64,000 nucleotides of DNA from Campylobacterota bacterium (GTDB lineage: Bacteria > Campylobacterota > Campylobacteria > Campylobacterales > Sulfurimonadaceae), in contig JAUPKZ010000001.1 of the NCBI GenBank assembly GCA_030837195.1, positions 5,104 to 69,103 of the forward strand. Reading direction: 5' to 3'. Both the position numbers and the translations under genes were made by a program. Positions 4,847 through 63,754 of the stretch are shown here, piece after piece (positions within the stretch are counted from its first letter, which is position 1; each line of letters opens with the position of its first letter). Below the pieces are notes generated by a model. That model was not told the origin of the DNA, made no database searches, and saw nothing but the letters and a program-made list of their open reading frames with translations.

Positions 4847-4849
4847 TAC

Positions 4850-16291: not shown

Positions 16292-16675
16292 ATGAAAGAG
16301 TATGTTTTAAAAAGCAATGATTTTTTAGTATCACAAACCGACTCAAAAGGCATAATTTTATTTGCCAACGATGACTTTTGCAAAGTTGCAGGCTACACAC
16401 TAGAGGAGCTAGTGGGCAAGCCTCACAATGTAGTGCGACATCCGGATATGCCAAAAGCGGCATTTAAAGATTTATGGGCAACCATAAAGAGCGATAAAGT
16501 TTGGACGGGGTATGTTAAGAACCGCTCTAAAGACGGTGGATTTTACTGGGTGTATGCAACCATATTCCCTATGTATGATGAAGTAAGAAGAGAAAAGGTT
16601 TATCTCTCTTGCAGAAGAAAACCATCTGCTAAAGAGATAGAAACGGCTCAAGAGCTATATAAAACATTAAGATAG
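16292..16675 (+). CDS. Stand-alone PAS-domain protein (Aer/CetB-like energy-taxis sensor)
   Basis: Internal ATG of the 16250 ORF chosen. Aer-type PAS motifs [22 protein letters not shown]...[19 protein letters not shown]...[10 protein letters not shown]. Immediately upstream of an MCP lacking a ligand domain. Confidence 0.75.
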
Positions 16676-16685
16676 GAAAACAGGT

Positions 16686-17798: not shown

Positions 17799-17804
17799 TG
17801 GCAT

Positions 17805-17834
17805 TTTAGAGTAAAAAGACCTTTTTACTCTAAA
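17805..17834. terminator. Bidirectional hairpin between convergent MCP and EAL genes
   Basis: 13-bp perfect stem TTTAGAGTAAAAA / TTTTTACTCTAAA with loop GACC. It overlaps the last codons of the minus-strand EAL gene. Confidence 0.6.
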
Positions 17835-28360: not shown

Positions 28361-29263
28361 TTGTTTGATGAACTAATACATAAACTAAAATACGGCACTT
28401 ATATAACGCTGGAGACTACTCCATCACACTCTGCGGCATTTAAACCGATTGTAGATAAAATAGAGTCTTTAGGACTTCACAACTTAGTAGATGGTTTTAC
28501 GACAACGGACAATCCTCTAGCAAAGCTAAAATACAACTCACTCTTTGGCGCAAAGCTGCTGCAAGATAGATTTAACAAACCTGCTATTGCTACTATGAGT
28601 ATGCGTGATAGAAACAAAATAGCACTGCAATCTGACTTACTGGGTGCAAACGAATTTGATATAAGAGCTATATTGGCGCTAACAGGAGATCCTGCTACCA
28701 TATCTGACCAACCAAAAGCAAAAGGTGTTTTTGAAGCGGACAGCACGCTTCTTTTGGATATCATTAGCTCATTTAACAAAGGTTTTGATTATGCACAAAA
28801 AGAGTTTACCCAAAAACCAAAAGAGATATATCCTTTTGCAGTCGTAAACTCTCATGCAAAAAATCCAAAAACACTACAAAAGAAGATGCAAAAAAAGATA
28901 GCTCACGGGGCGTCAGGCATTATAACACAGCCTGTATATGATATAGAAAATGCAAAAGTTCTACTAGAGCTGATAAATGAGGCAAACAATGTCGTATCAG
29001 GGAATTCAGTAATTATTTTAGGACTTTTCCCCATAACAAAACTAAGAACTGCACAGTTTTTAGACTCAAATGTTCCGGGCATTAATGTACCGAAAAAATG
29101 GCTTGATGCTTTGAGCGTTGCTAGTCAAAGAGGAGTAGATGAGGAGTATAGAGTAGGTTTTGAGCTAAGTAAAAACCTATTTTTAGAACTAAAAGCTCTT
29201 CACCCAAAAATTCATCTAATGACTGCAAACCAGTTTCAAATAGCCAAAGATATAATTTCTTAA
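28361..29263 (+). CDS. Methylenetetrahydrofolate reductase family protein
   Basis: 300 aa, TTG start. MTHFR-like segments T.D.P.....S......L, LALTGD, TQPVYD. Confidence 0.7.
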   Translation: MFDELIHKLKYGTYITLETTPSHSAAFKPIVDKIESLGLHNLVDGFTTTDNPLAKLKYNSLFGAKLLQDRFNKPAIATMSMRDRNKIALQSDLLGANEFDIRAILALTGDPATISDQPKAKGVFEADSTLLLDIISSFNKGFDYAQKEFTQKPKEIYPFAVVNSHAKNPKTLQKKMQKKIAHGASGIITQPVYDIENAKVLLELINEANNVVSGNSVIILGLFPITKLRTAQFLDSNVPGINVPKKWLDALSVASQRGVDEEYRVGFELSKNLFLELKALHPKIHLMTANQFQIAKDIIS

Positions 29264-35425: not shown

Positions 35426-36066
35426 CTCTTTTTTTCTGCCGTAAAATACCCGATTAGTGTTTCAGAAGCGCGCAACTCATTTCCTACATCGATATTTAGT
35501 CTGAAATTTCTAGGAACATAAATAGTTGTGATGCCATTTAACATAAAACCGTATCTCACGCCTTGAAGTACATTTTTACCTTCATAGGCATCTATTTCTA
35601 TGGATTTAAAACTCTGTTTTAACATATGAATAATTCTAATAGTATATCCGCTTTTATTACTAAATACTATCTCTGCATTTTCATTTATATCTTTTGCCAA
35701 TGGACTATTTAGTTGAAGTCTGGCACCGTGATTTATGTTAATTCTTTGTAGTGAAGCAGTAAAAGGAGCTCTAAGAAGAGATACATTAAAGTATGTACTA
35801 TCTATCTCAACTTTATATTCATTCATTTGACTAAGTTCTTCAATAGATACGACTACTCCATCTACGGGACTTACTACACTCTCTTGCTCATATGCAACAC
35901 TCTCTCTTTCTGGATTTCTAAAAACATAAACAAAAAAAGCCGTTGCCAAAAAAGCCATAAATTCAAGATTGTCAAAATCTAAAAAAGCAAAAAACAAGAA
36001 AAGAGCCGCTGAAACATATAAAAAGTACCATCCTTCTCTTGCAATAGGTAAGAGATTACTCTTCAT
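35422..36066 (-). CDS. Phosphatidylserine decarboxylase-related membrane protein (short form, atypical cleavage motif)
   Basis: 214 aa. N-terminal TM pair and a PSD-like C-terminal core (...[18 protein letters not shown]...V.G..L.A.ETLIGY). Synteny with cheY-prmA-ftsH as in C. jejuni. Confidence 0.55.
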
Positions 36067-38059
36067 CCTGCACCTCTATATTTTTTTTGGAGCCGTTCTT
36101 CTTTTCTGTTTCGCCATTAGACATTTTTGCATCGGCTTTTAACTCCTCTTCAATGTCATTGACCAGCACTACGACTTTTGACTCTATATTGTTCGCTTTT
36201 TCAAAATTTAATATTATATCTCTAACTTCGTCACCGGTAATATTTTCTTTTTTATAGAGAAGTTTAACGATACTCTCAATAGCACCGCTATACTCCCTTA
36301 ATCTTTTTACGACATCTTCATATCTTTCTTTGAGTGTAGATTTTATAAATGCATCCATCTCTTCTGCCATTTTATCACTATACTCTCTTGAGCTCTGTCC
36401 ATAACCGCCTAAAAATGACTGTCTGCTCTTTTCTAGTACCATAAGCCCTGCGACATCACTCATACCGTAGGTCTGCACCATCGCTTTTATGATATCAGTT
36501 GCTCTTTCTAAATCATTTCCGGCACCAGTCGAAATCTCGCCTATAAAAACTTCCTCTGCCGCTCGTCCGCCTAAGAGTACATCAACTTCTGCTAAAAGCT
36601 CATGTTTTTGAGCCATAAACTTATTTTCTTCAGGCGTATTTAGAGTATATCCTAGCGCTGCTAATCCTCTTGGAACAATTGAGACTTTTGAAACTTTTTT
36701 TGCACCCTCGGTCGTTTCTGCCATAAGTGCATGCCCGCTCTCGTGGTATGCAACAATCTTTTTCTCTTTAGGGTTTATTCTTCTTGATTTTTTAGCAAGT
36801 CCAGCTAACGCTCTCTCAACAGATTCGTATAGGTCTTTTTGCTTTACCGTTTTTTGGCTTTTTCTACCGGCTAAAAGAGCTGCCTCGTTTACAACATTTG
36901 CCAAATCCGCACCTGCTAGTCCTGCAGTCAGTCGCGCAATCTCTTCAAGCTCGACATCATCGTCCATTTTAACGCCTTTAACATGGACTTTTAGTATTTT
37001 TACACGCCCCTCAAAATCCGGCTTATCTACAAGTACCTGTCTATCAAATCTACCCGGTCTAAGAAGCGCTTGGTCAAGTATCTCAGGTCTGTTTGTAGCG
37101 GCTAATATAATTATAGGAGTATCCGTGCCAAATCCATCCATCTCTGCTAGAAGCTGGTTTAGAGTCTGTTCTCTCTCATCATTACCGCCCATAGATGCAC
37201 CTGCCATACGGCTTTTACCTATAGCATCTATCTCATCTATAAATATAATGCTTGGAGCATCCTTTTTTGCCTGTTCAAATAAATCTCTGACTCTAGCAGC
37301 CCCTACCCCAACAAACATCTCTATAAAACTAGAGCCTGTAACTGAGAAAAAAGGCACACTCGCTTCGCCTGCTACAGCTTTTGCAAGTAGCGTTTTACCA
37401 GTTCCGGGGCTTCCGACAAGAAGCACGCCTTTTGGTATTTTTGCACCAATCTCAACATACCTTCCCGGATATTTTAAAAAGTCAACTATCTCTTGAACTT
37501 CCTCTTTTGCCTCTTCTACACCTGCGACATCATCAAATTTAGTTTTAGGCTTCTCGGAATTTATCATTCGCTTTGATGCGCCCATTCCCAAAATACCGCC
37601 GCCCATACTCTTTTGCATTCTTCCTGCAAAAAACATCCATATTGCTATAATTATTAAAAACGGAAATAGCCATCCAAACATCTCCGTAAACCAATTTGTT
37701 TCGCTAAAACCGTCATACTCTATGCCGTTTTTTTCAAGCTCTTGAACTAGCGTATCATCGCCTTTTATGATTCTTGTAGTATAAAGCGTTGTATTGTCGG
37801 CTCCATATGCTTTTATATAGCTCTGACCTATTTCAACTTTTTTCAATCCTTTAGATGCGACAAGCGATTTAAACTCCGAATAGGTAACTTGCTTAGCTCT
37901 TTTTGCACTGCCAAGCACTTCATCCGAAGCCGGATTTTCACCGATAATTGCTCTAAATAGCATTATTATGATTACCGAAAAAATCGCAAATGTTATTAGG
38001 GGATTTTGGTTAAAAAAATTATTATTTTTATTATTGTTATTATTTTCTTGATTTTGCAT
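36056..38059 (-). CDS. ftsH: ATP-dependent zinc metalloprotease FtsH
   Basis: 667 aa. Walker [12 protein letters not shown] region, HESGHAL zinc site. Confidence 0.97.
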
Positions 38060-50131: not shown

Positions 50132-50208
50132 TGGTACGCCCGAAGGGATTTGAACCCCTGACCACTGGTACCGCAAACCAGTGCTCTATCCAGCTGAGCT
50201 ACGGACGC
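50132..50208 (-). tRNA. tRNA-Arg, anticodon read as GCG
   Basis: The reverse complement folds as a 77-nt cloverleaf GCGTCCG-TA-GCTCAGCTGGATAGAGC-A-CTGGT-TTGCGGT-ACCAG-TGGTC-AGGGGTTCAAATCCCTT-CGGGCGT-ACCA. It closely resembles E. coli tRNA-Arg apart from the anticodon loop. CCA is encoded. Confidence 0.85.
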
Positions 50209-50266
50209 ACATTGCCTCTTTAAGAGGATGAAATTATATCACTTTTAACTTATACAATAATAAATT

Positions 50267-50491
50267 TTAGTAAGAAATATCTAGCTTTCCTACAAGTTCT
50301 TCTATTTTTTGTTCTTGCGTAAAAAGCTCATGGTTTTTTCTTATGTATGCTTGAAGAAGAATTTTCAAGTCGTTATTCCCTTCAACATTAAAATCTTTTC
50401 TTAACTGTTTCTCTAAAAAAGGAGCAAAACTATCTTCTACATCAACATCAAAACGGCGTCCGCCGATGTTTAAGCCAAGTTTTTTACTCAT
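50267..50491 (-). CDS. Small protein, possibly ZapA-like cell-division factor
   Basis: 74 aa. LNIGGRRFDVDVED...L pattern reminiscent of the ZapA N-terminal domain, plus a short helix. Weak assignment. Confidence 0.35.
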   Translation of the reverse strand: MSKKLGLNIGGRRFDVDVEDSFAPFLEKQLRKDFNVEGNNDLKILLQAYIRKNHELFTQEQKIEELVGKLDISY

Positions 50492-50494
50492 ACG

Positions 50495-50722
50495 CTAAAC
50501 CATTATGCTTTCGATCTTTTGAACTATCTCTTCTATCTCTAAATCTTTAAGACTGTTTTGTTCAATCAACTTTTCTATTTCTTGGTTTTTTATCTCATTT
50601 TCTGCTTTTTGCTTTACTACTTCGAGTCTTAGAGCCTCGTTTTCACCTTTTAGTTGGCTATACTTCTCTATCATTGCGGATATTTTGTCATTTAATTTGA
50701 TTAAATTTGTCTGATTTTGCAT
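50495..50722 (-). CDS. Small coiled-coil protein (ZapB-like)
   Basis: 75 aa, essentially one heptad-repeat helix (E/K/L/I/Q rich). Lies 3 nt upstream of the previous ORF. Confidence 0.35.
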   Translation of the reverse strand: MQNQTNLIKLNDKISAMIEKYSQLKGENEALRLEVVKQKAENEIKNQEIEKLIEQNSLKDLEIEEIVQKIESIMV

Positions 50723-50814
50723 TTAAGCTCTCCTATATATTTAAAAAGCGAAGCAAATGACCACCTCTTTTGTAAGTCATTGCATCGATTAAAATCCGCT
50801 ATTTACTTTAAAAT

Positions 50815-51066
50815 TTAATCGTAATCTTCGGAAAACTTGCTTCTGTGTCGAAATTTTTGAACATGCCCGTAGTCGTCATCTTCATCATCGTCATACTCAT
50901 CGCCAAACTCATTTTCAAGCAATCTCTCATAACCCATTTTTTCGAGTTCATCATCAATTTGCTCTTTGTCCAAGCCATTTTTTTTACTAAAATCTAAGAT
51001 GTATTCAACATCTTTTCTCATTACACCGTTTAGCTCTAAAACAAATTCCAAATCTTTAAATGTCAT
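50815..51066 (-). CDS. Small acidic hypothetical protein
   Basis: ATG at 51066 has an AAGG RBS 5 nt upstream (the track ORF starts at 51096). The C-terminus carries a DEYDDDEDDDY acidic run. Confidence 0.4.
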   Translation of the reverse strand: MTFKDLEFVLELNGVMRKDVEYILDFSKKNGLDKEQIDDELEKMGYERLLENEFGDEYDDDEDDDYGHVQKFRHRSKFSEDYD

Positions 51067-51246
51067 ATTTGCCTTCTTTACAAACATACTCCACAAACTT
51101 ATGGAACATTTATGTTATTTCCTTATTCTTAAATTTTAATTTTATAGCAAAATTATACTCTCAAATAATTTTTTTTTCGCTAAAAAAAATCTTAAAAAAA
51201 AGCATATTTTTCTTTATCAAATTTGTAAAACTTTCTCTGCATTCTA

Positions 51247-51255
51247 TGTTATAAT
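51247..51255 (+). promoter_or_regulatory. Extended -10 element (TGtTATAAT) upstream of the rimK-fusion operon
   Basis: TGTTATAAT lies 16 nt before the first ATG (51272), preceded by a long A/T-rich tract. Confidence 0.4.
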
Positions 51256-51271
51256 TTAACCAAAATAGCGG

Positions 51272-52690
51272 ATGTGTCTTATGTCTGAAAAAACAATTAT
51301 CGGTGCTAGAGAAATCATTTCAATTGCAGATTTAAACTTATACGACCTTGATGTAAAGATTGACACGGGTGCCGATTCAAATGCGCTTCATTGTGATGAT
51401 ATTTTTGTAGATGAAAACAATATAGTCCATTTCAAACTTCTTGATGAAGTTCATCCTGCATACCACGGTAAAGAGATGCATATGCCGCTTTATGAGATGA
51501 AAAAAATCAAAAGCTCAAACGGTGAGGTACAGCAAAGACCCTCCATAAAAGCAAAAGTTGAATTTTTCGGCAAAAGATATACAACGGTTATATCACTAAC
51601 GGATAGATCCGATATGAAATATCCTATGCTTCTTGGAAAAAAATTTCTTAAAAAAAATTTCTTAGTTGATATTTCACAAGAATATCTCTCAAAATCTCAT
51701 AAAAAATCTGCTGCCGTAGAACAGCCAAAAGATGCTACACAACAAAAAACAACACCGATAAGAGTCTATGTACTATCAAGAAACAAAGAGCTATATTCGA
51801 CAAAAAGGCTAGTTCAGGCAGCTGAACAAAGAGGTTGGGAAGTAAAGGTCATTGATTATTTAAAATGCAGCATCGAGATTATGAAAGATGAGTTAAAGGT
51901 AAACTATCTAGGCAAAGAGCTGCCAAAACCGGATGCTATAATCCCAAGAATAGGCGCTAGCAGAACATTTTACGGAACTGCTATGGTACGCCATTTTGAA
52001 ATGATGGATGTTTTTACAACAACCGGAAGTTTGGCTATTAAACGCAGCAGAGATAAGCTAAGAAGCCTTCAAATACTCTCAAAAAACGGTATCGATTTGC
52101 CAAAAACCGTATTTGCTTCTAACAAATCAAGTACAAAAGATGTAATAGCCCTAAGCGGAGGAGCTCCGCTTGTTCTTAAGATTTTAGAAGGAACTCAGGG
52201 GGTCGGCGTTGTTTTAGTTGAGAGCGAAAAAGCAGCAAAATCCGTGCTAGATGCTTTTTACGGCATGGATGTAAATATGCTTGTTCAAGAGTACATAAAA
52301 GAGTCTGGTGGTTCCGACATCAGAGCCTTTATAGTAGGAGGTAAAATTGTCGGAGCAATGAGGCGCCAAGGCATAGAGGGCGACTTTAGGTCAAACCTTC
52401 ATCAAGGCGGTAGAGCTACTGCACATAAACTCACGAAAAAAGAAAAAGAGACTGCCCTTGCCGCTGCCAAAGCTATGGGTCTTAATGTGTGCGGGGTAGA
52501 TATGATCCCATCTGCCAGAGGACCTTTAGTTATGGAAGTAAACTCTTCACCCGGACTTGAAGGTATCGAGAAATCAACAAATATAGATATTGCCTCTAAG
52601 ATTATGGAGTACATAGAAAAAAATGTTACACAAAAAAATAGAGCACTTACAAAAAAATCAAGAATAAAAAAAGATAGCATAGGAGCTTAA
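51272..52690 (+). CDS. rimK: Fusion protein: retropepsin-like (DUF785/'Zn protease') domain + RimK ribosomal protein S6 glutamate ligase
   Basis: 472 aa. N-terminal about 140 aa with IGAREIISI..L......VKIDTGADSNALHC (D-T-G-A). The C-terminal 300 aa is co-linear with RimK (LVLKILEGTQGVGVVLVES, DIRAFIVGG, NLHQGG, CGVDMIPSARGPLVMEVNSSPGLEGIE). Confidence 0.85.
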   Translation: MCLMSEKTIIGAREIISIADLNLYDLDVKIDTGADSNALHCDDIFVDENNIVHFKLLDEVHPAYHGKEMHMPLYEMKKIKSSNGEVQQRPSIKAKVEFFGKRYTTVISLTDRSDMKYPMLLGKKFLKKNFLVDISQEYLSKSHKKSAAVEQPKDATQQKTTPIRVYVLSRNKELYSTKRLVQAAEQRGWEVKVIDYLKCSIEIMKDELKVNYLGKELPKPDAIIPRIGASRTFYGTAMVRHFEMMDVFTTTGSLAIKRSRDKLRSLQILSKNGIDLPKTVFASNKSSTKDVIALSGGAPLVLKILEGTQGVGVVLVESEKAAKSVLDAFYGMDVNMLVQEYIKESGGSDIRAFIVGGKIVGAMRRQGIEGDFRSNLHQGGRATAHKLTKKEKETALAAAKAMGLNVCGVDMIPSARGPLVMEVNSSPGLEGIEKSTNIDIASKIMEYIEKNVTQKNRALTKKSRIKKDSIGA

Positions 52691-52699
52691 AATATAAAT

Positions 52700-53731
52700 A
52701 TGGAACTATTTTATGATGTATTAAAGCAGCTTATTCGCGTTCCTAGCGTGGTGGGAGCCGAGCATCCTTTTTTTTTATTTATAAAAAGAGAACTTGAAGA
52801 AGCGGGAATTACGGTAGAGTACTACGATGGGGTACTAGTCGCAAAAGGAGATTCTCCTGAGGATGGGTATATATCTGCTCATGCCGATAGACACGGGCTC
52901 ATTTGTACCGGACACAATGAGTTTCAGTATGCAGCTTTCATAGCAAAAAATAAAGCAGACCTAATGGGAAACTCAAACTCCGAGCAGCTTTTAAATAATT
53001 TTACAGCGCGATTTGTAGATGAAAAAGTACAAGCTTATGACCCTTGGTCTGGAAGCTATATAGGGCTTGGAACCATTAAAGATGCTTTTTTATGCCAAAG
53101 AAGGAACAATATTATATTTAAAGTTGAAGGTTTTGACTATCTCTTTCCCGGAACTCCTATTGCATTTATGGATAAACTAGATTTTCAAGAGGAACTTATT
53201 TCTGCACAACTTGACAATGTTTTGAGCGTTGCAATCATCATCTATCTATATCTCATAGGGTACAAAGGTACGGCTTTTTTTACGGCATCCGAAGAAGCGG
53301 GAAAGAGTTGGAGATTTTTACTTGAGTATTTCAGAAGGTTCGATATCGCCACAAATGAACTCTTGGTCTTAGATACAAGCCCCTACCCTACACTTGAAGA
53401 TATAAAAAATATAGACATTGTTTTAAGAAACAGAGATTCAAATGCCGTTTTTAAATCACCGCTTAAAGATAGAATCAAAAAAATAGCAAAAAAAGAGAAG
53501 ATCAAATACGACTTTAAAGATAAATATCTAAGAAATAAAATCAAAAAAAATGGCGCAAAAGGATCCATAGGCACGACGGAGTTAGGAAGGCTTATCCATG
53601 CAACGAAAGGACAACTTCAAGGTACTACGCTGCAAATTCCTACAATTGGGTATCATACGGTAAATGAAACAACGACAAAAAGCTCTGTTGAGAGCATGAT
53701 TAATGTCTTAAAAAAAGTATATATAAAATAA
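52700..53731 (+). CDS. M42-family (glutamyl-aminopeptidase-like) metallopeptidase
   Basis: 343 aa. Putative metal and catalytic positions are all present in order: SAHADRHG, QLDN, SEEAG, LVLDTS, GYHTVNE. Starts 9 nt after rimK. Confidence 0.6.
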   Translation: MELFYDVLKQLIRVPSVVGAEHPFFLFIKRELEEAGITVEYYDGVLVAKGDSPEDGYISAHADRHGLICTGHNEFQYAAFIAKNKADLMGNSNSEQLLNNFTARFVDEKVQAYDPWSGSYIGLGTIKDAFLCQRRNNIIFKVEGFDYLFPGTPIAFMDKLDFQEELISAQLDNVLSVAIIIYLYLIGYKGTAFFTASEEAGKSWRFLLEYFRRFDIATNELLVLDTSPYPTLEDIKNIDIVLRNRDSNAVFKSPLKDRIKKIAKKEKIKYDFKDKYLRNKIKKNGAKGSIGTTELGRLIHATKGQLQGTTLQIPTIGYHTVNETTTKSSVESMINVLKKVYIK

Positions 53732-53753
53732 ACCTGTTATTATAGGATAGGCA

Positions 53754-54539
53754 ATGAGCAATATTCATAATTTAGTAGATAATTTACACTTGGAAGATTT
53801 AAGAAATGCAAATCATCCCTCAATTTTTGATGAAAATGAGTTATACGATATGCTCATTATAAGACTACCTATCATTGAAAAAACAATTAAAGTAAACTCT
53901 ATCGGGTTTATAATTACCCATGACAACAGCTACTTTTACAATAGAGAAAAAGATACTTTTGAAGAGTTAGGCAACCGTTTTGAAGCTCCGTATGAGATTT
54001 TGGATGACATAGTAGATGCTTTATTGAAGTCATTTGAAGGTTATGACGATTTGATTGTAGATATGGAAGAAACTTTATATATAAACAAAACGAAAAGCTC
54101 TTTTATGAAACAATGGCTTACCCTTAAACACAATATTGTAAAAATAGAGAGAATACTAATGCATGCCTCTTCGACGATGGATAAAGCTATCGGGTACTAT
54201 GAAAAAACTGAAAAATTTCCCATAAACCACTATACGGATTTGCACGAGCATATAGAAAGAACTCTAAGATCCGCTACGCTACAACTCTCTAAACTTGACT
54301 ATATCTATAACTTTTACAGTGCATTAACAAACGAGAGAACAAATCATTCAATCTATATACTGACTATTATTTCTGCAGTATTTTTACCGCTAAATCTGAT
54401 TGTCGGTTTTTTTGGTATAAACACAAGCGGTCTGCCTTTTAGCGACGGGAGTTCAGGAACGACCAATGTTATAGTACTTATGTTTTTTGTGTTGATTGTT
54501 TCTATAGTGTTGATTAATTTTGTAAGAAATAGAGCTTAA
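53754..54539 (+). CDS. CorA/ZntB-like divalent cation channel (short form, GIN motif)
   Basis: 261 aa. Cytoplasmic helical domain, then two C-terminal TM segments joined by FFGINTSGLPF (GxN motif, closer to ZntB GVN than CorA GMN). Confidence 0.6.
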   Translation: MSNIHNLVDNLHLEDLRNANHPSIFDENELYDMLIIRLPIIEKTIKVNSIGFIITHDNSYFYNREKDTFEELGNRFEAPYEILDDIVDALLKSFEGYDDLIVDMEETLYINKTKSSFMKQWLTLKHNIVKIERILMHASSTMDKAIGYYEKTEKFPINHYTDLHEHIERTLRSATLQLSKLDYIYNFYSALTNERTNHSIYILTIISAVFLPLNLIVGFFGINTSGLPFSDGSSGTTNVIVLMFFVLIVSIVLINFVRNRA

Positions 54540-54545
54540 TAAATA

Positions 54546-54567
54546 AAATAGGTCAAAAGACCTATTT
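54546..54567. terminator. Bidirectional hairpin between convergent corA-like gene and small ORF
   Basis: AAATAGGTC-AAAA-GACCTATTT 9-bp stem, 7 nt after the plus-strand stop. Confidence 0.6.
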
Positions 54568-54593
54568 CAGAGGGAGAAATAAAGAAGGATCGC

Positions 54594-54725
54594 TTAGTAA
54601 ATATCTGAACTAGGGTGGTTCGGTTTTGAGATATTGCTACCAGCGTCTTTTGTATCATAGTGTACTGTGTTGTCAGCTTGAAGAGCACCTAATGTTAATG
54701 CGATTAGTAAAATGATCTTTTTCAT
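54594..54725 (-). CDS. Unlisted 43-aa ORF encoding a signal-peptide-bearing small protein
   Basis: Hand translation: MKKIILLIALTLGALQADNTVHYDTKDAGSNISKPNHPSSDIY*. AGGA RBS 7 nt upstream, A-x-A-like cleavage site (LQA|D), hairpin downstream. Falls below the length cut-off of the supplied ORF track. Confidence 0.5.
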   Translation of the reverse strand: MKKIILLIALTLGALQADNTVHYDTKDAGSNISKPNHPSSDIY

Positions 54726-54885
54726 TTTGGTTTCCTTTGGTAAGAACGCGTTACGCTCTTGTTTTTTAAATCGGAGAAATTTTATCCTATTTAACTTTTA
54801 TCTTTCTTATTGCTTTTTAATTATCTGTTTATTTTAAGTTTTGATTTATTTTATGATAAAGTTACACAACTACTCAAGGGGTTAT

Positions 54886-55758
54886 ATGCAGTTTCATCGC
54901 GTTTATATAGAAATAACAAATATTTGTGGACTTGCATGCAGTTTCTGTCCTCCAAAACCTGCACCGTCAAAAACAATGTCGCTACTATTTTTTGAAAAAA
55001 TACTCCAAGAGCTTAAACCTTTTACAAAAACTCTTGCATTTCATGTTATGGGCGACCCTCTGACACTCTCAAATTTACACGACTATCTAGCGCTTTCATA
55101 CTCACACGGTTTTAAAGTTGAACTTACTACAAGCGGCTACTATCTATCCAAACACACTCCGCAAACAATTTTTCATAAGGCAACAAGGCAACTAAATATC
55201 TCACTAAACAGCTACAACAAAAACAATCTAAATATCTCTTTTGATGAGTATATGGATAAAGTTTTAGAGTTCTGTGAGCAAAAGATACTTCACCACCCGC
55301 AACCTTTTATAAATCTTCGTCTTTGGAATCTTGATGAAGTCTGCAGCGAAGCCGAATACAACAAACTACTATTTAAAAAATTATGCTCATTTTTTAATAC
55401 TAAGATTGACGAAAACAAGATATATAGAGAAAAGATTAAATCAATTCGTTTGGCTCCAAAAGTGCTGCTAAATTTTGATAGCTACTTTGAGTGGCCATCT
55501 TTAGCCTCTTCTCACAACAACAATGGAACATGTTACGGTTTAAAATCTCACATAGGAATTCTTGCAAATGGAACCGTTGTGCCGTGCTGTTTGGACGGAG
55601 ATGGCATTATAGCCCTTGGAAATCTGCATGAAAGCTCACTTTTTGAAATACTACACTCGCAAAGAGCTCAAAATATGATTGATGGTTTTAAAAATTTCAA
55701 GGCAGTTGAAGAACTTTGCAAAAAATGCAGTTATAAAGATAGATTTACAAAGGGTTAA
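54886..55758 (+). CDS. Radical SAM enzyme with C-terminal SPASM/twitch-like Cys cluster
   Basis: ATG at 54886 after AAGGGG. IEITNICGLACSFCP (CxxxCxxC). C-terminal GTCYG...VVPCCLDG...LCKKCSY cysteines. Confidence 0.8.
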   Translation: MQFHRVYIEITNICGLACSFCPPKPAPSKTMSLLFFEKILQELKPFTKTLAFHVMGDPLTLSNLHDYLALSYSHGFKVELTTSGYYLSKHTPQTIFHKATRQLNISLNSYNKNNLNISFDEYMDKVLEFCEQKILHHPQPFINLRLWNLDEVCSEAEYNKLLFKKLCSFFNTKIDENKIYREKIKSIRLAPKVLLNFDSYFEWPSLASSHNNNGTCYGLKSHIGILANGTVVPCCLDGDGIIALGNLHESSLFEILHSQRAQNMIDGFKNFKAVEELCKKCSYKDRFTKG

Positions 55759-55788
55759 TGTTTAATATTTTCTGTTATACTTCAAGCT

Positions 55789-56100
55789 ATGCGAATACGA
55801 AAATTCTGGACACTGCTATTGTTAATATCGATTGCTTTTTTCGTAGCACATGCTTCGGTTTTCTCGGCAGTTCAAGACGAGCACTGCAGTGTTAGCGAAT
55901 ATGTTCAGGAAATTTCACAACCTGTAGAGTGTGGGGATATATGCGATACACACTATGTGTTTCATATGAGCTTTATCCTTCCTTTTAAAAACAATCTCGA
56001 CATGTATAACAATAGTCCGTTGCTTCCACCTATTCATTCTAATGAGCATTATCAAAATGGCTCAATTTTACCATCTTACCGCCCTCCAATTACCGCTTAA
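55789..56100 (+). CDS. Small Cys/His-rich membrane-anchored protein (putative metal-related accessory protein)
   Basis: 103 aa. N-terminal TM (FWTLLLLISIAFFVAHA), then DEHCSVSEY....PVECGDICDTHYVFH and a C-terminal ...YRPPITA. Lies upstream of the RND metal-efflux operon. Confidence 0.45.
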   Translation: MRIRKFWTLLLLISIAFFVAHASVFSAVQDEHCSVSEYVQEISQPVECGDICDTHYVFHMSFILPFKNNLDMYNNSPLLPPIHSNEHYQNGSILPSYRPPITA

Positions 56101-56185
56101 CTTTTTATTTACATACTAAACCATTACCACTAACTCCCTTTTGAGGGAGATTATATACCTATCTATTTATTTTAAAGGATTACGC

Positions 56186-56509
56186 ATGAAATTTATCATA
56201 TTAATATGGAGCATAATGCTCGTATTGCAGGCAGAAACAACAAGTATTACGGTTCAAGAACACAACTCTTTTCATAACGCGAATAATCGTACTACTCTAA
56301 AAGCGTACAAAAAAAGAAAAATGCACGCTTTACACAAAATTGATGAAAAGCAGGCGGCGCAATTGGTTAAAAATGAAACGGGTGAAGAGATTATTTCTAG
56401 TACATTAACACATAGAGGAAACTCTCTTTTCTATGATATTGATACCAAAAACCATACTGTTGAGCTAGATGCAATTGATGGAACAATTCTCAAGAAAGTT
56501 AAAAAATGA
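56186..56509 (+). CDS. PepSY-domain periplasmic protein
   Basis: ATG at 56186 after AAGGA. Signal peptide MKFIILIWSIMLVLQA. C-terminal PepSY-like pattern (I.S..L.......FYDIDT......VELDAIDGTILK). Confidence 0.55.
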   Translation: MKFIILIWSIMLVLQAETTSITVQEHNSFHNANNRTTLKAYKKRKMHALHKIDEKQAAQLVKNETGEEIISSTLTHRGNSLFYDIDTKNHTVELDAIDGTILKKVKK

Positions 56510-57654
56510 TTAAGTTTATTTTGCCTATCACACTTCTATGCACTATCGGTTACGCCGAAAACTTTGAAACTTTTTTGGCACGCGCAGTTGAAAATAGCAC
56601 ATATATTCAATCCTCTCATCTAACGATTGAACAATCTCGCTTGGAGGGGAAAATCATAAAACGGTATGAAAACCCAAAGGTTGAAATGGAAGCATCCAGC
56701 TTTGAAAGTGAAAATGGCTATCGCGTAGCCATCGCTCAACCTATACGCCTTTGGGAAGTAAGCGCCGATAAAGAACATTTTGCAACCTCTAAAGAGGCAA
56801 ATGCCAAAGCCAATGTTTCGGCCATGCATGCTCAGTTTGTAAAAGAGATATCTTTTTTATATGCAGAGTATTCACAAAAACAAAAACTGCTGAACTTAGC
56901 CAATGAAGAGCTTAAAATAGCTCAAAAAATAAATGAGATATCAAATCAGCGCTTTCTTAGCGGTTCGCTCTCAAAGGCTTTGATGCTCCAAGCGAATGTT
57001 GATTACGCAAATGCGCAAAGCAATGTTCTTGAACATGAGAGAGAGCGTTCATTAAGCCATTACAACTTGTTGGCATTTGCAGGAGTTACAGAAGAACTCC
57101 AGATTGAGCCAAACTATCAATTTAGACTCATCAATAACGAGAAAGAGAATCCGGATATTGCACTGCTTGAATCCGAAAATGCTATGTCGATATCCGAATC
57201 CAAACTAAATACATATACAGTTGAATCTATCGAGGTGTTTGGTGAATATGAAAGAGAGGGTAATCAAAATATTTACCGTGCCGGAGTCTCAATTGCCTTG
57301 CCTTTTTTTAACGACAAGAGTGAAGAAAAATCGATTTTATCACTGCAAGAACGCCGCAGTGCATTAGCATTAAAGGCTTATAAAAACCGTCTTCAAACTA
57401 AAACAGCCACACTCAAAAAAGAGTTGGACACTCTAAATATACTGCTTCAAAAGCGTCAATCAAATCTAAAAAATGAAGAGGAGCTAATGAACATGTACAA
57501 TGATGCGTATGCCATAGCCACAATCAATATTTTAGAACTCTATGAGATTAAAAATAGAGTTCTTTCTACAAAGCGCGAAGTAATAAATCTGCAAGCACAG
57601 ATAGACCGCGCAACAGTCGAGTACAACTACACACAAGGAAATTACAATGAATAA
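56506..57654 (+). CDS. TolC-family outer membrane efflux protein (CzcC-like)
   Basis: 382 aa with a signal peptide and two repeated coiled-coil/beta halves. ATGA overlap with the upstream ORF and overlap with the downstream adaptor gene. Confidence 0.75.
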   Translation: MIKFILPITLLCTIGYAENFETFLARAVENSTYIQSSHLTIEQSRLEGKIIKRYENPKVEMEASSFESENGYRVAIAQPIRLWEVSADKEHFATSKEANAKANVSAMHAQFVKEISFLYAEYSQKQKLLNLANEELKIAQKINEISNQRFLSGSLSKALMLQANVDYANAQSNVLEHERERSLSHYNLLAFAGVTEELQIEPNYQFRLINNEKENPDIALLESENAMSISESKLNTYTVESIEVFGEYEREGNQNIYRAGVSIALPFFNDKSEEKSILSLQERRSALALKAYKNRLQTKTATLKKELDTLNILLQKRQSNLKNEEELMNMYNDAYAIATINILELYEIKNRVLSTKREVINLQAQIDRATVEYNYTQGNYNE

Positions 57655-58762
57655 AATTATATTGAGGCTCTTTTTTTTACTATCGGCTACACTGCTTGGA
57701 GCGCTTGATATTCCTACTCAAACAGCTCAAATTCGCCCCTTTGGTGCAACAATCGATGTTAACGCCAAAATTATCCAGCAAAACAGTGATCAACAAGCCA
57801 TCACATCCCCTTTGAGCGGATACATTGAAGCATATTATGTTCGTGCCGGAGAGAGAGTCAAAAAAGGAGACAAGATAGCAAAAATAGTCTCAGCCGAACT
57901 TTCAAAAATGGCAGTAAATTATCAGTCTCTAAAAACACAATACGGATATTTGGATAAAAATTTCCAATCCAATAAAGAGCTGTATGAACGCGGAATGATC
58001 TCTGCTCAAGAGTTTACATCAAAGCAAATCGAACGAGATGCCATGCATTCACAAATAAGGAGCATAGAAGCCACTCTTAAAACATCAAATATAAAACAGG
58101 AATCACTTAACACTTCAAACTCTGCGTACTTTATTTATGCAACCGTTTCAGGAACTATTTCTGAGATCATTCAGCCTCTTGGTTCATATGTAAAAGAGGA
58201 TACTTCTTTAGCGCACATTATCAATAAAAATGCCTTCTTTTTAGAGTGCTATGTTCCTCAGCGTTACGCCATGGATGTCAAAAATGGGCAAAAAGTGCTT
58301 ATTAAGAACAACTCATCAACTCCTATGTACGGGAAGATTGAGCGTATTTTACCGTCGATAGATGAAAAAACTCAGCGTTTGAGTGTTTTGGCTTCTATAG
58401 AACCTCCTTTGCAAGAGCTTTATCTCAACCAATATGTCGGTGCAACTATCTACACCCAAAAAGATAAAAACTATCTCTCTGTGAAAAAATCTGCGCTCAC
58501 CTTTTTTCAAAATGAGTGGGTTGTCTTTGTTCCGGTACAAAAAAGCCCTTCTGTAAAACAAGAAGAACACAAGGAACATGAAGAACACGATGAGGATAAA
58601 GCGAGTTCCCCGTACGAAGCCAGAGTAGTTGAAATAATAACCAAAGATGATGATTATATTGCAATTCGCGGGCTAGAGGAAGGTGAGAGCTATGTCAGCG
58701 ATAAAAGCTATTATGTAAAATCGATGCTGTTAAAATCAGCTATCGGTGAGCATGGGCATTGA
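57647..58762 (+). CDS. RND efflux periplasmic adaptor (CzcB/CusB-like) with His/Glu-rich insert
   Basis: 371 aa. Lipoyl/hairpin motif (I.SPLSGYI....V..G..VKKGD.IA.I) and an EEHKEHEEHDED segment. Confidence 0.85.
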   Translation: MNKIILRLFFLLSATLLGALDIPTQTAQIRPFGATIDVNAKIIQQNSDQQAITSPLSGYIEAYYVRAGERVKKGDKIAKIVSAELSKMAVNYQSLKTQYGYLDKNFQSNKELYERGMISAQEFTSKQIERDAMHSQIRSIEATLKTSNIKQESLNTSNSAYFIYATVSGTISEIIQPLGSYVKEDTSLAHIINKNAFFLECYVPQRYAMDVKNGQKVLIKNNSSTPMYGKIERILPSIDEKTQRLSVLASIEPPLQELYLNQYVGATIYTQKDKNYLSVKKSALTFFQNEWVVFVPVQKSPSVKQEEHKEHEEHDEDKASSPYEARVVEIITKDDDYIAIRGLEEGESYVSDKSYYVKSMLLKSAIGEHGH

Positions 58763-58771
58763 GGAAAAAAT

Positions 58772-61700
58772 ATGATTGATAAACTTATAGATATTTCCCT
58801 CAAATACCGTGCTTTGGTTCTTGTAGCATTTCTGGCAATTATTGCTTTGGGAGTAAAATCGTATCGCGATATACCTGTTGACGCATTTCCTGACATTACA
58901 CCAAAGCAGGTCGTTATTTACACCGAAAGCCCCGGTAATTCTGCCGAAGATATAGAAAAACTAATTACCTATCCGATTGAATCAGCACTATCAGGGATGG
59001 CAGGCGTAAAAATGATTATGTCAAACTCTATTTTTGGACTCTCCTATGTATCCATCTTTTTTGAAGATGACATGGATATCTATTTTCTGAGACAGCTTGT
59101 CAATGAACGCCTAAGCAGTGTTGAAATACCAGAAGGATGGGGAAAACCTGTACTTGGTCCAAATACCACCGGTCTTGGTCAAGTGCTATGGTATCAAATT
59201 CAAGATAAAACAGGAAAATTTTCACTGAGCCAACTGAGACAACTTCAAGAATATGTCGTAGCTCCGTTATATAAAAGTGTATCGGGGGTTGAAGAGGTTA
59301 CGGGATGGGGAGGTCATGAAAAGCAGTATGATGTACTCATTGACACACAAAAGCTTCAAGATTTTGATATAACATACGGTAGCGTGGTTAATGCTTTACA
59401 AAAAAGTAATAGTGCCGCAGGAGGACAGTATCTTGAATTTAACCAAGAGCAATATCTTATACGAGGGGTAGGACTTTACAATTCATTGGACGATATTCGC
59501 AACACCCCGATAAAGCACCTCAACGGTGATTCTATAACCATTAACGATATCGCTGAAGTTAAAGAAGGGACATCTCCACGGTTTGGAGCGGTATCGGTTG
59601 ACACAAAAGAGGCCGTTATGGGGATGGTGTTGCAACGCACTCAGACCAATGCGGCTGAAGTTGTTGAACAACTAAAAGAAAAAACAAAGACAATCAACAC
59701 AACCCTTCCCGAAGGTGTCAGCATAAAACTTTTGTACGACCGTACAGAGATAACAAAAAAAGCGGTTGACACTATGGATGAGGCACTACTGAGCGGGATG
59801 ATACTTGTAGGAATCGTTTTGTTCTTATTTTTATTTGAGTTGCGCTCGGCATTTATCGTTATTCTCTCGCTTCCTGTTTCATTGTTAATCGCTTTTTTAC
59901 TAATGGATTATTATGGACTTAGCGCCAATTTGATGAGCTTGAGCGGTCTGGCTATTGCCGTGGGTATGATTGTTGACGGAACGGTTGTTGTAGTCGAAAA
60001 CAGTTTTAGAAAGCTGCATGACCACCCAGAGTTATCACATTTTGAGGTAATCTCATCAGCAGCTAAAGATGTTTCAACACCGGTGACATTCGCGATTTTA
60101 ATAATTGCCGTTGTTTTTTTACCGCTGCTTAGCCTCGATGGTTTAGCCGGAAAACTCTATGTTCCGATGGCACTTAACATAACATTTGTAATGCTGGGTT
60201 CGCTCGTTGTTGCTCTTGTTTTAGTGCCTGTTTTAGCAACTTATCTGCTAAAACCCACGACTCATCACGATAATATTATTATGCGCGCACTTAAGAGAAG
60301 ATACACTCCGATGCTCAACTTCGCACTATCTCATGCCAAAGCATTGCTAAGCGGAGCATCCATACTTTTTTTAGCTTCTATTGTAATGCTAACTCAGCAT
60401 GGGCGTGAATTTATGCCGGAACTAAACGAAGAGTCAATTATGTATCGTGTCACTTCTATCCCCGGTACCAGTTTGTCGCAGTCAACACAGACGGCTCAAG
60501 AAATAGAAAAGTTCATACTTGAGCATCACGGCAATGAAGTAGAGTCTGTTTTATCAATGATTGGACGAAGTGAAAAAGGAGAAACAGCACAGGCAAACTA
60601 TATGGAGGTGCTTTTAATACTCAAGCCAACCATTGAAAACTATGAAACTCTTTCAAAACAAATTGACACAGAACTTGATAAAGAGTTTGAATTTGTTCAA
60701 TTTACCCCGACTCAGCCAATCGCCATGCGGATTGAAGAACTGCTCGAAGGAGTAAAAGCAGAACTTGCAATTAAAATCTACGGTGAAGACCAAAAAACAC
60801 TCCAATCGATTGCAAATGAGATACAAGAGAGCATCGGTTCTGTAAGCGGGGTTCAAGGCATAGAGGTTGAATCACAATTAGGGCAGGCTCAAATCAAAAT
60901 CGAACCTGATTATGCCGCCCTTGCACGACATGGCATCAGCGTAGATGAAGTAATGGATATTATTCGCTACGGTATCGGAGAAGAGCCTGCTACATACATG
61001 ATTGAAGGTGTGCGCCGCTATGGTATAGTGCCGAAAATCAAAGATGCAAAAATTGACATCGATGCAATAAAAAATATTTCTATACGCTCAAATAATGAAC
61101 AAATGATTACACTCGATCAGGTTTGCCATATCGATACAATACAAGGTTCTTCATTTATCAAGCGTGAAAATATGAGCCGTTACATGGTGCTATCCATTGA
61201 TGTTGAGGGGCGTGATATCGCCTCATTTGTCAAAGAAGCAGATTCACTTATAAATAAAAACATAAATATGCCTGATGGCTATTATCTGGGGTGGGCAGGG
61301 GATTTCAAAAATATGCAAGAGGCAACGCAAAAGCTGCTTATTATTATCCCTATTACGCTGCTTTTAATAATCCTGCTTCTTTATATGGCATTTAATTCAC
61401 TCTCCAAAGCAGGGCTTATTTTGCTTAATGTTCCTTTTGGATTGATAGGTGCCGTTGCCGCGCTGTTGATTAGCGGCGTATATCTATCGGTTTCTGCAAT
61501 TGTAGGATTTATAGCCATCTTTGCGATTGCGGTTCTTAACGGAATCGTTCTGGTCAGTTTTATTGATGAAATGCGAACAAAATTCCCGGATGTAGATCTA
61601 AAAGAGGTAGTCAAAAATGCAACTCTTTTACGATTGCGACCGGTACTCATGACTGCTTCTACCGCGCTGCTTGGAATTTTGCCTTTGCTCTTTGCCACAG

Positions 61701-61834
61701 GTGTCGGAAGCGAAATCCACTATCCTCTTGCCATTGTAGTAGCAGGTGGAATCATCAGCTCTACAATCTTAACTCTGTTGATATTGCCATCGACATATTG
61801 GATGTTTTATCGTAAAGTTCCTACTAAACTATAG
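58772..61834 (+). CDS. Heavy-metal RND efflux pump, CzcA/CusA family
   Basis: 1020 aa, 12-TM RND topology. N-terminal signature DAFPDITPKQV.I.TE.PG..AE..E..IT.PIE typical of the HME-RND subfamily. Confidence 0.92.
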   Translation: MIDKLIDISLKYRALVLVAFLAIIALGVKSYRDIPVDAFPDITPKQVVIYTESPGNSAEDIEKLITYPIESALSGMAGVKMIMSNSIFGLSYVSIFFEDDMDIYFLRQLVNERLSSVEIPEGWGKPVLGPNTTGLGQVLWYQIQDKTGKFSLSQLRQLQEYVVAPLYKSVSGVEEVTGWGGHEKQYDVLIDTQKLQDFDITYGSVVNALQKSNSAAGGQYLEFNQEQYLIRGVGLYNSLDDIRNTPIKHLNGDSITINDIAEVKEGTSPRFGAVSVDTKEAVMGMVLQRTQTNAAEVVEQLKEKTKTINTTLPEGVSIKLLYDRTEITKKAVDTMDEALLSGMILVGIVLFLFLFELRSAFIVILSLPVSLLIAFLLMDYYGLSANLMSLSGLAIAVGMIVDGTVVVVENSFRKLHDHPELSHFEVISSAAKDVSTPVTFAILIIAVVFLPLLSLDGLAGKLYVPMALNITFVMLGSLVVALVLVPVLATYLLKPTTHHDNIIMRALKRRYTPMLNFALSHAKALLSGASILFLASIVMLTQHGREFMPELNEESIMYRVTSIPGTSLSQSTQTAQEIEKFILEHHGNEVESVLSMIGRSEKGETAQANYMEVLLILKPTIENYETLSKQIDTELDKEFEFVQFTPTQPIAMRIEELLEGVKAELAIKIYGEDQKTLQSIANEIQESIGSVSGVQGIEVESQLGQAQIKIEPDYAALARHGISVDEVMDIIRYGIGEEPATYMIEGVRRYGIVPKIKDAKIDIDAIKNISIRSNNEQMITLDQVCHIDTIQGSSFIKRENMSRYMVLSIDVEGRDIASFVKEADSLINKNINMPDGYYLGWAGDFKNMQEATQKLLIIIPITLLLIILLLYMAFNSLSKAGLILLNVPFGLIGAVAALLISGVYLSVSAIVGFIAIFAIAVLNGIVLVSFIDEMRTKFPDVDLKEVVKNATLLRLRPVLMTASTALLGILPLLFATGVGSEIHYPLAIVVAGGIISSTILTLLILPSTYWMFYRKVPTKL

Positions 61835-61852
61835 TCCTTTTCTGGACTATAG
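61829..61852 (+). terminator. Hairpin overlapping the RND pump stop codon
   Basis: CTATAGTCC-TTTTCT-GGACTATAG 9-bp perfect stem. No strong U-tract, so function is uncertain. Confidence 0.4.
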
Positions 61853-61888
61853 AAAATAACATAAACACCAAATTAGCTATAATTCCGT

Positions 61889-63754
61889 ATGTCAAAATTT
61901 AAAGTAATATCAAATTATCAACCTGCAGGAGACCAGCCAAAAGCTATTGAGCTTCTAAGCGATTCTATTCTCAAAGGCAACCGCTACCAAGCCCTAGAGG
62001 GAGTCACGGGAAGCGGCAAAACTCATACAATGGCAAGAGTTATAGAAAAAACACAGCTTCCCACGCTCATAATGACTCACAACAAAACTCTTGCCGCTCA
62101 GCTCTACAGCGACAGCGCCATAAACGATGAGCTTGAGCGCCTTCGCCTCTCTTCAACCGCAAATCTCCTCTCTTATGATGATGTTATCGTCGTGGCATCC
62201 GTCTCTGCAAACTATGGTTTGGGAGACCCGGAAGAGTATGAAAATATGGTACAGTCTATTGCCGTGGGAGATACTATAGCACAAAAAAAGCTTCTACATC
62301 GCCTTGTAGAAATGGGCTACAGCCGTAACGACACATACTTTGATAGCGGACAGATAAGAGTAAACGGAGAGAGTATGGATGTCTATCCGCCCTACTTTGA
62401 ACAAGAAGCCATCCGCATAGAATTTTTCGGCGATGAGATAGAGGCTATCTATACATTTGATATTATCGACAACAAACGGCTTGAAGAGCATAAAAAATTT
62501 ACTATTTATGCAACTTCACAATTTAGCGTAAGCCAAGAGAAGATGGCAGTTGCCATAAAACGCATAGAGGAAGAGCTTGACGAGAGGCTTGCCTACTTCC
62601 AAAAAGAGGGTAAACTTGTCGAGTATCAGCGCCTTAAACAGAGGGTTGAGTTCGACCTTGAGATGCTTCAAACAACGGGAATGTGCAAAGGAGTTGAGAA
62701 CTACTCAAGACTGCTTACAAACAAAAAGCAAGGAGAAGCTCCTTATACTCTGCTTGACTACTTTTCACTACACCACAAAGAGTATCTTGTAATAGTTGAT
62801 GAGTCTCATGTTTCACTTCCACAGTTTCGTGGAATGTTTGCCGGAGATAGAGCTAGAAAAGAGGTTTTGGTAGAGTACGGTTTTCGTCTGCCAAGCGCGC
62901 TTGACAACAGACCCTTAATGCTAGATGAGTACATACACAAGGCTCCACACTATCTTTTTGTCTCCGCAACGCCCTCTATCTACGAGCTTGAACTCTCAAG
63001 TGCTATAGCAAAGCAAATTATTCGCCCAACAGGACTTCTTGACCCTGTTTTGGAGATAAAACCATCTACAAATCAGGTAGAAGATATACACGATGAGATA
63101 AAAAAAGTGACAGCTAAAAATGAACGCGTTTTAATAACCGTTCTTACAAAAAAGATGGCAGAAGCGCTTACAAAATATCTGGCAGATTTAGGCATAAAAG
63201 TGCAGTATATGCACTCGGATATAGATACGATAGAGAGAAATCAGATTATCAGAGCGCTCCGCATAGGAGAGTTTGATGTTCTAATAGGTATAAACTTGCT
63301 TCGTGAGGGGCTTGATTTGCCGGAAGTTAGCCTTGTAGCCATTTTAGATGCCGATAAAGAGGGATTTTTAAGAAGCGAGACGGCTCTTATTCAGACAATC
63401 GGGCGCGGAGCCAGAAATGTAAACGGCAGAGTTATTTTGTATGCAAACAAAATTACAGGCTCCATGCAAAGGGCAATTGACATAACCAATGCAAGAAGAG
63501 AGATGCAGGAGAGATACAATAAAGAGCATAATATTACGCCGGTGACTACTGTGCGCACAATAGATGAAAATCTAAAAGTAGAAGATTACGGCAGTATTTA
63601 CCAAAAAAATAAAAAAATTGATAAAATGCCGCCATCGGAAAAAAAAGCTCTTATAACACAGCTATCACTAAAGATGAAAGAAGCAGCAAGGGAGCTTAAC
63701 TTTGAAGAAGCGGCCAGACTTCGCGATGAAATCGCAAAATATAAAAAACTATAA
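61889..63754 (+). CDS. uvrB: Excinuclease ABC subunit B with in-frame internal deletion of the beta-hairpin region
   Basis: 621 aa. [12 protein letters not shown], helicase motifs and the C-terminal UVR domain ([13 protein letters not shown]) are intact. The segment between NKTLAAQLY and the (E/Q).RLS.T box is 9 residues long instead of about 45. Confidence 0.9.

Follow-up and report, generated by a model that had tools for sequence, protein, structure and literature searches.

The stretch of DNA analysed here, 64,000 nt from a Campylobacterota bacterium (NCBI GenBank assembly GCA_030837195.1, contig JAUPKZ010000001.1, positions 5,104 to 69,103 of the forward strand; hereafter the window), raises the question of whether its uvrB gene has truly lost the codons for the β-hairpin, or whether these codons went missing only in the assembly. 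The open reading frame (ORF) concerned, 61889-63754 (+), comprises 621 codons and a stop, and its frame is open throughout. Judged by its sequence it is unmistakably UvrB and, by descent, the chromosomal uvrB orthologue; the source is an otherwise unsampled Sulfurimonas species, with 92.8% identity outside the gap to the nearest Sulfurimonas UvrB. The 36-residue deletion is a singleton, unmatched in any sequence searched. We probably deal with a real allele, and the account towards which we lean is that of a very recent, strain-specific, loss-of-function in-frame deletion of 108 bp, a single event, very young in evolutionary terms, that would have hit the chromosomal uvrB of this species.

The identity of the ORF as a 621-aa UvrB had been proposed from the letters of the DNA and its translations (hereafter the sequence-only reading), and is borne out by equivalog models, Pfam domains and structure alignments. 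The protein scored 879.9 bits against NF003673 (cut-off 743) and 854.4 bits against TIGR00631 (cut-off 750.1); both matches fall into two stretches and skip profile positions ~77-108. As the NF003673 cut-off is passed so comfortably despite the lost hairpin, score thresholds alone would not flag the loss. Solved UvrB structures (1D9X, 1T5L, 2FDC and 6O8E) align with the 621-aa protein end to end (E ~1e-198, ~50-55% identity), and the Pfam domains stand in their normal order, ResIII, UvrB_inter, Helicase_C, UvrB and UVR. With bacterial UvrB as described by NF003673 and TIGR00631 the window protein thus shares the domain order, motifs I, Ia and II-VI, domain 2 and the UVR domain, but it is 36 residues short, lacking the β-hairpin and the strand that leads into it. 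The recovery of all other motifs and domains also upholds the earlier statement that the remainder of the gene is collinear and intact. The features of the gene are as follows, invariance of columns being assessed in an alignment of the window UvrB with 24 close relatives.

61889..63754 (+): uvrB coding sequence, orthologue of the 657-660-aa Sulfurimonas UvrB, minus codons 75-110
62009..62023 (+): Walker A / helicase motif I GSGKT, residues 41-45, intact; columns invariant
residues N65-Q71 (+): motif Ia NKTLAAQ; columns invariant
62106..62117 (+): deletion junction ACAGCG-ACAGCG, from the DNA alignment with the related locus L001 and the junctions of 80 relatives
62258..62524 (+): domain 2 (UvrA/Mfd-type interaction), residues 124-212, intact; PF17757 UvrB_inter, E 1.6e-27, profile 3-91 of 91
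62798..62809 (+): helicase motif II DESH, residues 304-307, intact; columns invariant
residues S359-T361 (+): motif III SAT; columns invariant
63083..63418 (+): second RecA-like domain, Helicase_C, residues 399-510, intact; PF00271, E 2.6e-20
63437..63562 (+): UvrB-specific motif region, residues 517-558, intact; PF12344, E 1.6e-18, profile 1-42 of 43
63644..63748 (+): UVR domain 4 (UvrC-binding, auto-inhibitory), residues 586-620, intact; PF02151, E 3.6e-10, profile 1-35 of 36

Extent and uniqueness of the deletion

Against both the structures and the NCBIfam equivalogs the protein aligns in two collinear pieces, query residues 1-75 corresponding to reference residues 1-76 and query residues 72/75-620 to reference residues 109-657, so that about 32-36 reference residues are skipped. 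The DNA alignment with the nearest relative contains a single clean gap of 108 columns, and the protein alignment with 119 homologues sets the missing peptide at exactly 36 residues (108 nt), the β-hairpin tyrosines included; the earlier estimate of about 36 codons, hairpin among them and lost in frame, was accurate. The lost codons 75-110 of the 657-aa form correspond to E76-K111 in Bacillus caldotenax numbering, and the hairpin tyrosines among them are the equivalents of Y92, Y93, Y95 and Y96. The lost 36 residues are invariant or nearly so in the 24 aligned close relatives; the conserved aromatic segment that marks the β-hairpin, invariant in 24 of 24, is wholly absent from the window protein. 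In structural terms the motif-Ia helix would lose its last turn, and the strand HVEYFVS would go together with the complete β-hairpin, an assignment drawn from a low-confidence model and the B. caldotenax structure. Neither a second uvrB nor the lost 108 nt was found elsewhere in the window.

Coordinates, peptide context and junction string given by the sequence-only reading all proved correct when the window was read again. The DNA at 62107-62117 is CAGCG-A-CAGCG, within the tandem hexamers ACAGCGACAGCG at 62106-62117; the full junction string is CTCTACAGCGACAGCGCCAT, and TAYTAYGAYTAYTAYCARCCNGARGC is the string expected in a form that still carries the 108 nt. The junction lies between 62110|62111 and 62112|62113, its exact spot being ambiguous through a shared GA, and these 2 nt are the whole overlap common to both break points. 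That reading had also proposed a microhomology-mediated deletion via a 5-nt direct repeat, and this proposal did not hold. In all close relatives both ACAGCG copies are present, hence ancestral, and stand 114 nt apart, the left one in TAC AGC GAG (Y-S-E) and the right one in GAC AGC GCC (D-S-A); in the window 108 nt are gone and both hexamers are retained, now in tandem. Slippage between the copies would have removed 114 nt and left one copy, hence a repeat-mediated origin is not supported. Folding offered no substitute: minimum-free-energy structures of five reconstructed ancestral sequences contained no consistent stem that would join the deletion ends, their energies ranging from within ~0.5 standard deviations (SD) to 2.8 SD below those of mononucleotide shuffles. 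A chimeric join of two known lineages was considered as well and rejected, since no part of the protein has a near-identical counterpart in the databases.

Relatives are full length throughout. Among 120 proteins listed, UvrB measures 657 aa in 65 and 660 aa in 49, in accordance with the ~657 aa given by the sequence-only reading. The best 119 matches in a collection of 5.8 billion proteins are Sulfurimonas-type UvrBs of 657-680 aa, none of which (0/119) has a gap in the region. The hairpin segment is kept in 162 of 162 related uvrB loci, drawn from genomes of GTDB species and from JGI metagenomes; the gene is full length in all 80 loci of GTDB species representatives and in all 80 of the best protein-guided JGI metagenome loci. 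Among the best 150 of 1.84 billion representative proteins, all near-complete UvrBs align in two pieces, the second of which starts from their own residue 107-112, and the hairpin segment is therefore present there. A degenerate DNA pattern for the junction peptide had no match in 241 million JGI metagenome records. The orthologue alignment that the sequence-only reading had proposed as a check thus returned full-length relatives and no shared short form. A conserved short-form UvrB paralogue is ruled out, as the architecture recurs nowhere among the 119 homologues, the 162 loci and the near-complete UvrBs of the best 150 representatives, nor in the junction-pattern search.

The exception among the best 150 representatives is P0218, a fragment of 413 aa that belongs to another clade and is gapped internally at several places. 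It also lacks the hairpin region, jumping from ...TTAWLIE to KDSSVNEE..., has a further internal gap and is truncated; judged by eye, its sequence looks actinobacterial. Gapped UvrB singletons of this kind evidently turn up sporadically in public assemblies.

Predicted product and age of the lesion

What would such a protein do? In UvrB the hairpin threads between the DNA strands, with Y92 and Y93 binding phosphates and Y96 stacking on the base beside the extruded nucleotide, so that the clamped strand is contacted by Y92, Y93 and Y96 (PMC6750098). The substitution Y96A arrests repair at the UvrAB-DNA stage, and deletion of the hairpin costs DNA contacts while UvrC is still bound (PMC3643590). 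In E. coli, a chromosomal hairpin deletion in uvrB extends the dwell time of UvrA on DNA to 148 s, 15-fold above normal (PMC7083872). Engineered hairpin mutants (B. caldotenax Δβ-hairpin and Y96A, E. coli uvrB(ΔβHG)) are like the window protein in that hairpin function is lost and the ATPase core and domains 2 and 4 are kept; their phenotype is poor loading onto DNA, no damage verification and prolonged residence of UvrA (PMC3643590, PMC7083872).

With its ATPase motifs, UvrA-binding domain 2 and UvrC-binding UVR domain kept, the window product, if folded, would still bind UvrA and UvrC. Devoid of the hairpin, it would be unable to clamp the damaged strand, to verify the lesion or to form the pre-incision complex; the allele would then be null for nucleotide excision repair and might hold UvrA on DNA for longer. 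A 621-aa product that binds UvrA but is defective in nucleotide excision repair is plausible, in agreement with the Y96A and hairpin-deletion mutants. The engineered deletions of Skorvaga and colleagues from 2002 reportedly take the hairpin tip only (about Q97-D112), bridged by a linker. The deletion in the window is about twice as long, extends to a core strand and to Y92, Y93, Y95 and Y96, is not bridged by a linker, and is natural (or in silico). As it is larger than the engineered ones and reaches into the domain 1a core, even the binding of UvrA would require that the protein still folds, and misfolding is a further possibility; folded or not, the product is predicted to leave the allele null for nucleotide excision repair. 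By analogy with the mutants, failure of the damage-dependent pre-incision complex and of incision by UvrC is predicted (PMC3643590, PMC6750098, PMC7083872); measured by the function of its hairpin, the 621-aa protein is predicted not to be a working UvrB and would at best act as the engineered mutants do.

Synonymous divergence (dS) from the nearest relative is ~0.96. The ratio of nonsynonymous to synonymous divergence (dN/dS) lies at 0.046-0.069 in pairs of the window gene with its relatives and at 0.03-0.05 among the relatives themselves, and the window's own branch has a dN/dS of ~0.054 over a dS of ~0.7 (three-point estimate). With dN/dS at ~0.05 on a long branch, a protein that had been useless ever since the deletion could have evolved neutrally for no more than about 1-2% of that branch; so short a neutral time means that the lesion is very young, or not real, or that the remainder of the gene is still selected. 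Only four residues of the window UvrB are private, none of them near the junction, and the 443 columns conserved to at least 98% hold a single private change, the conservative L558I. A decayed pseudogene is ruled out by the open frame, by this one conservative change and by the low dN/dS.

The remaining possibility in that triad is a selected, functional hairpin-less UvrB, that is, a UvrA-binding modulator like the module in Mfd, or a heritable mutator or anti-recombination state. The D1a-D2-D1b module of Mfd has a UvrB-derived fold, binds UvrA via its domain 2, carries a short loop where UvrB has its hairpin and acts as a UvrA recruiter (PMC7835731). The window protein recalls this module distantly, and weak Mfd matches to it cover domain 2. 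Mfd also lacks the ATPase motifs and represents an ancient conserved architecture, whereas the ATPase motifs of the window protein are intact and its loss is a singleton. That a hairpin-less module works in Mfd, that the deletion is in frame and that all other motifs are held under a dN/dS of ~0.05 speak for selection. However, a very recent event explains the low dN/dS equally well, no second instance in any database searched gives a sign of persistence, compensating changes are missing from the few private residues, and, unlike Mfd or the engineered mutants, the window protein has also lost a core strand and part of a domain 1a helix. We hold a selected form to be very unlikely, and give equally little credence to its fullest version, a naturally maintained hairpin-less UvrB that would no longer repair DNA but would bind UvrA (and UvrC) and tune or shut off nucleotide excision repair as an Mfd-like UvrA sink or mutator state, possibly made by aberrant recombination at an undescribed island-integration site in the hairpin-coding sequence of uvrB.

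Real allele or artefact

The quality of the contig speaks for a very recent deletion in a real strain. Fourteen further genes of the window have orthologues at 65% identity or more, and they align collinearly with these, with 0-3 gap positions, compared with 36 in uvrB. The same strain has been sequenced elsewhere: proteins identical to those of the uvrB neighbours turn up in two JGI metagenomes and in the assemblies that Logan made from SRR24011154-60 and SRR25469172. Logan contigs from these runs equal window positions 50174-54747 and 57017-59301 at 100% identity, over 6.9 kb and with zero indels; they are at most 4.6 kb long and end short of uvrB. In the two JGI metagenomes the strain is 99.8-99.9% identical to the window; the comparison covered L163-L171. 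The flanks of the deletion share a 6-nt repeat at most, far below any assembler k-mer. From all this we infer that the allele exists in cells, and not only in the assembly.

Several observations weigh against this. A single NCBI contig (71,307 nt, of a metagenome-assembled genome, MAG) is the sole recorded source of the 621-aa product. Searches for same-strain uvrB fragments with residues 1-160 and 1-74 as queries gave nothing above ~88-90% identity, although such searches seem to list targets near the query length, so that fragments of 131-151 or 281-589 aa could be missed; exact look-ups of two reconstructed full-length proteins and of C-terminal fragments from D75 or S76 were likewise unmatched. 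A flawless gene with one clean lesion is also precisely the picture that a mistake in assembly or consensus calling would produce. As for the mechanism, a junction microhomology of 2 nt is unusual for spontaneous bacterial deletions, and both end points abut the same hexamer, an unexplained coincidence with a chance of ~1 in 1000 by a rough guess, not computed. The loss-of-function part is affected too: an AlphaFold2 model of a relative with full-length UvrB, built with 24 close homologues, reached a mean pLDDT of 54.8 and stayed below 50 at residues 81-255, too poor for the folding question.

These points feed the principal alternative, an artefact of assembly, scaffolding, gap-closing or consensus, in which the organism would have an undeleted uvrB and the 108 nt would have dropped out while the MAG contig was built or polished. 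Besides the singleton state of the allele on one contig and the otherwise flawless gene, it may be noted that the strain is present in at least eight other sequencing runs, and yet only the NCBI contig yields the 621-aa product; that simply butting the two ends ...CTCTACAGCG and ACAGCGCC... would yield the observed tandem hexamer; and that odd gapped UvrB singletons such as P0218 do occur in public collections. Against an artefact, no repeat of k-mer length flanks the deletion. De Bruijn-graph contigs cannot hold a junction that is absent from the reads; if the present contig is of this type, its reads would contain the junction. The contig agrees base for base with the independent assemblies over the 6.9 kb of overlap, and the 14 control genes align collinearly with their orthologues. 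That Logan lacks the 621-aa product says nothing either way, because long neighbours such as CzcA and DnaK are also absent there and the contigs are so short. On balance, an artefact appears the less probable explanation, if one to be taken seriously, and the recent deletion in a real strain is retained.

If real, the allele is a natural counterpart of the laboratory β-hairpin deletions and would indicate an environmental Sulfurimonas population without nucleotide excision repair, with UvrA possibly trapped on DNA, which would matter for the mutation rate and the uptake of DNA in a habitat that is dark and sulfidic. If an artefact, it calls for caution, as a MAG gene that has cleanly lost a catalytic element in frame still passes the curated family cut-offs. 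In either case no new repair mechanism is revealed.

Displaced uvrB 5′ copies and the region upstream

Could the deletion have arisen from mobile-element traffic at uvrB? A search with the first 74 residues of the window protein returned ~40 separate protein clusters, whose members are 107, 110 or 111 aa long and consist of UvrB residues 1-100, a short tail and a stop; the tail mostly has seven residues, x-H-x-x-x-[A/V/S]-A. These uvrB′ fragments lie upstream of a complete uvrB on the same strand, separated from it by 0.3 to >10 kb of unrelated cargo, as in the following loci.

L051: fragment 63-395, complete uvrB 4461-6443; cargo, a 1220-aa P-loop protein
L172: fragment 10001-10324, complete uvrB 16125-18098; cargo, GGDEF proteins
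L173-L176: cargo, TonB receptor and two-component genes; integrase-family ORF in L173 and L174
Further displaced fragments: L099, 1124-1306; L075, 1771-2016; L112, 2983-3162; L134, 449-647

The homology between fragment and complete copy ends exactly after the PEAY codon (codon 100/101), and paired RRCAGC motifs occur near both ends of the inserted DNA in the relatives. In most instances of displaced fragments the interval retrieved contains no integrase. The arrangement looks like that of an integrative element which, in related Campylobacterota, would insert into uvrB at its hairpin-coding core and bring along a new 5′ end for the gene. SXT/R391 at prfC is an integrative element in the 5′ part of a housekeeping gene and supplies a new 5′ end. 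The islands of the relatives are like it in having a displaced 5′ fragment, cargo and a complete hybrid gene on one strand with a sharp homology boundary; unlike it, their target is uvrB codon 100/101, and there is nothing comparable in the window. We found no paper on integration into uvrB. A phage origin of the 5′ fragments was rejected, the 42 IMG/VR matches being complete or contig-truncated host uvrB in prophage flanks. These displaced copies, which end at the hairpin-coding site and are followed by cargo, may be of more lasting interest than the deletion itself.

In the window gene, the 74 codons left of the junction (61889-62110) have 85.9% identity, compared with 92.8% ± 4% expected at the overall distance. 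Their proportion of nonsynonymous differences (pN) is 0.076-0.106, about twice the 0.038-0.060 of the rest of the gene, and the corresponding synonymous proportion (pS) is not raised. As the N-terminal differences are also seen in other relatives, the 5′ end looks mosaic rather than decayed.

These data bear on one particular origin for a real deletion, namely a scar of mobile-element traffic at a uvrB hotspot, in which aberrant integration, excision or 5′ replacement would have taken 78 nt to the left and 30 nt to the right of the hairpin-coding site. The crossover codon 100/101, where the displaced copies of the relatives end, falls inside the deleted interval (the chance for a random 108-nt deletion is ~5.5%, 108/1971 nt), the divergent 5′ end with its doubled pN and flat pS fits a different history, and the DNA upstream of uvrB is variable in cargo. 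Yet the deletion end points are not at the crossover site, each of the supporting statistics is weak (~0.05) and was noticed post hoc, and the N-terminal differences occupy variable positions with residues shared with other relatives. Near the window uvrB no uvrB′ fragment, element-end motif or integrase was found, and for this reason such a scar is a possibility and not a conclusion; we regard it as a rather improbable origin of the deletion.

The stretch directly upstream of uvrB is, to judge from gene content, a site of variable cargo between species. In the window the interval between a CorA-like gene and uvrB (54540-61834) holds a 305-aa ORF, a 122-aa ORF and a metal-efflux operon encoding TolC-like, CzcB and CzcA proteins (czcCBA, 56506-61834). 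The matching interval of L001 (692-9931) holds MacAB-TolC, radical-SAM/SPASM, 2OG-Fe(II) oxygenase and ankyrin-repeat genes. Five independent Logan contigs all end past the CorA-like gene and before the ORF that follows it, at window position 54747, possibly a boundary that varies between strains. At 61829-61852, over the czcA stop codon and just upstream of the promoter-like site listed below, lies a perfect inverted repeat of 9 bp, CTATAGTCC-TTTTCT-GGACTATAG, which might serve as a terminator or bind a protein.

61856..61883 (+): promoter-like site ATAACA-16 nt-TATAAT, 10 of 12 consensus positions matched

The TATAAT at 61878-61883 ends 5 nt before the uvrB ATG, and 11 of 13 relatives have the GCTATAATTCC box conserved at an equal distance ahead of the ATG. 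The GCTATAAT box stands 5-6 nt ahead of the ATG, with no Shine-Dalgarno sequence, in the window and in L003, L005, L007, L009-L011, L013, L014, L018, L024 and L025; L004 and L008 differ in having a 26-nt leader with AGAGGA. This layout suggests that the uvrB mRNA in the group is leaderless or near-leaderless.

On the other side of the gene, an ORF begins 7 nt past uvrB, where L001 has a VTT/DedA-type gene; by eye it looks conserved. Two large GGDEF-EAL proteins of c-di-GMP turnover, one of them with PAS domains, are encoded at 2939-4846 and 29260-31668, besides DnaK (7739-9622) and FtsH (36056-38059). These are ordinary chromosomal surroundings and not a mobile element.

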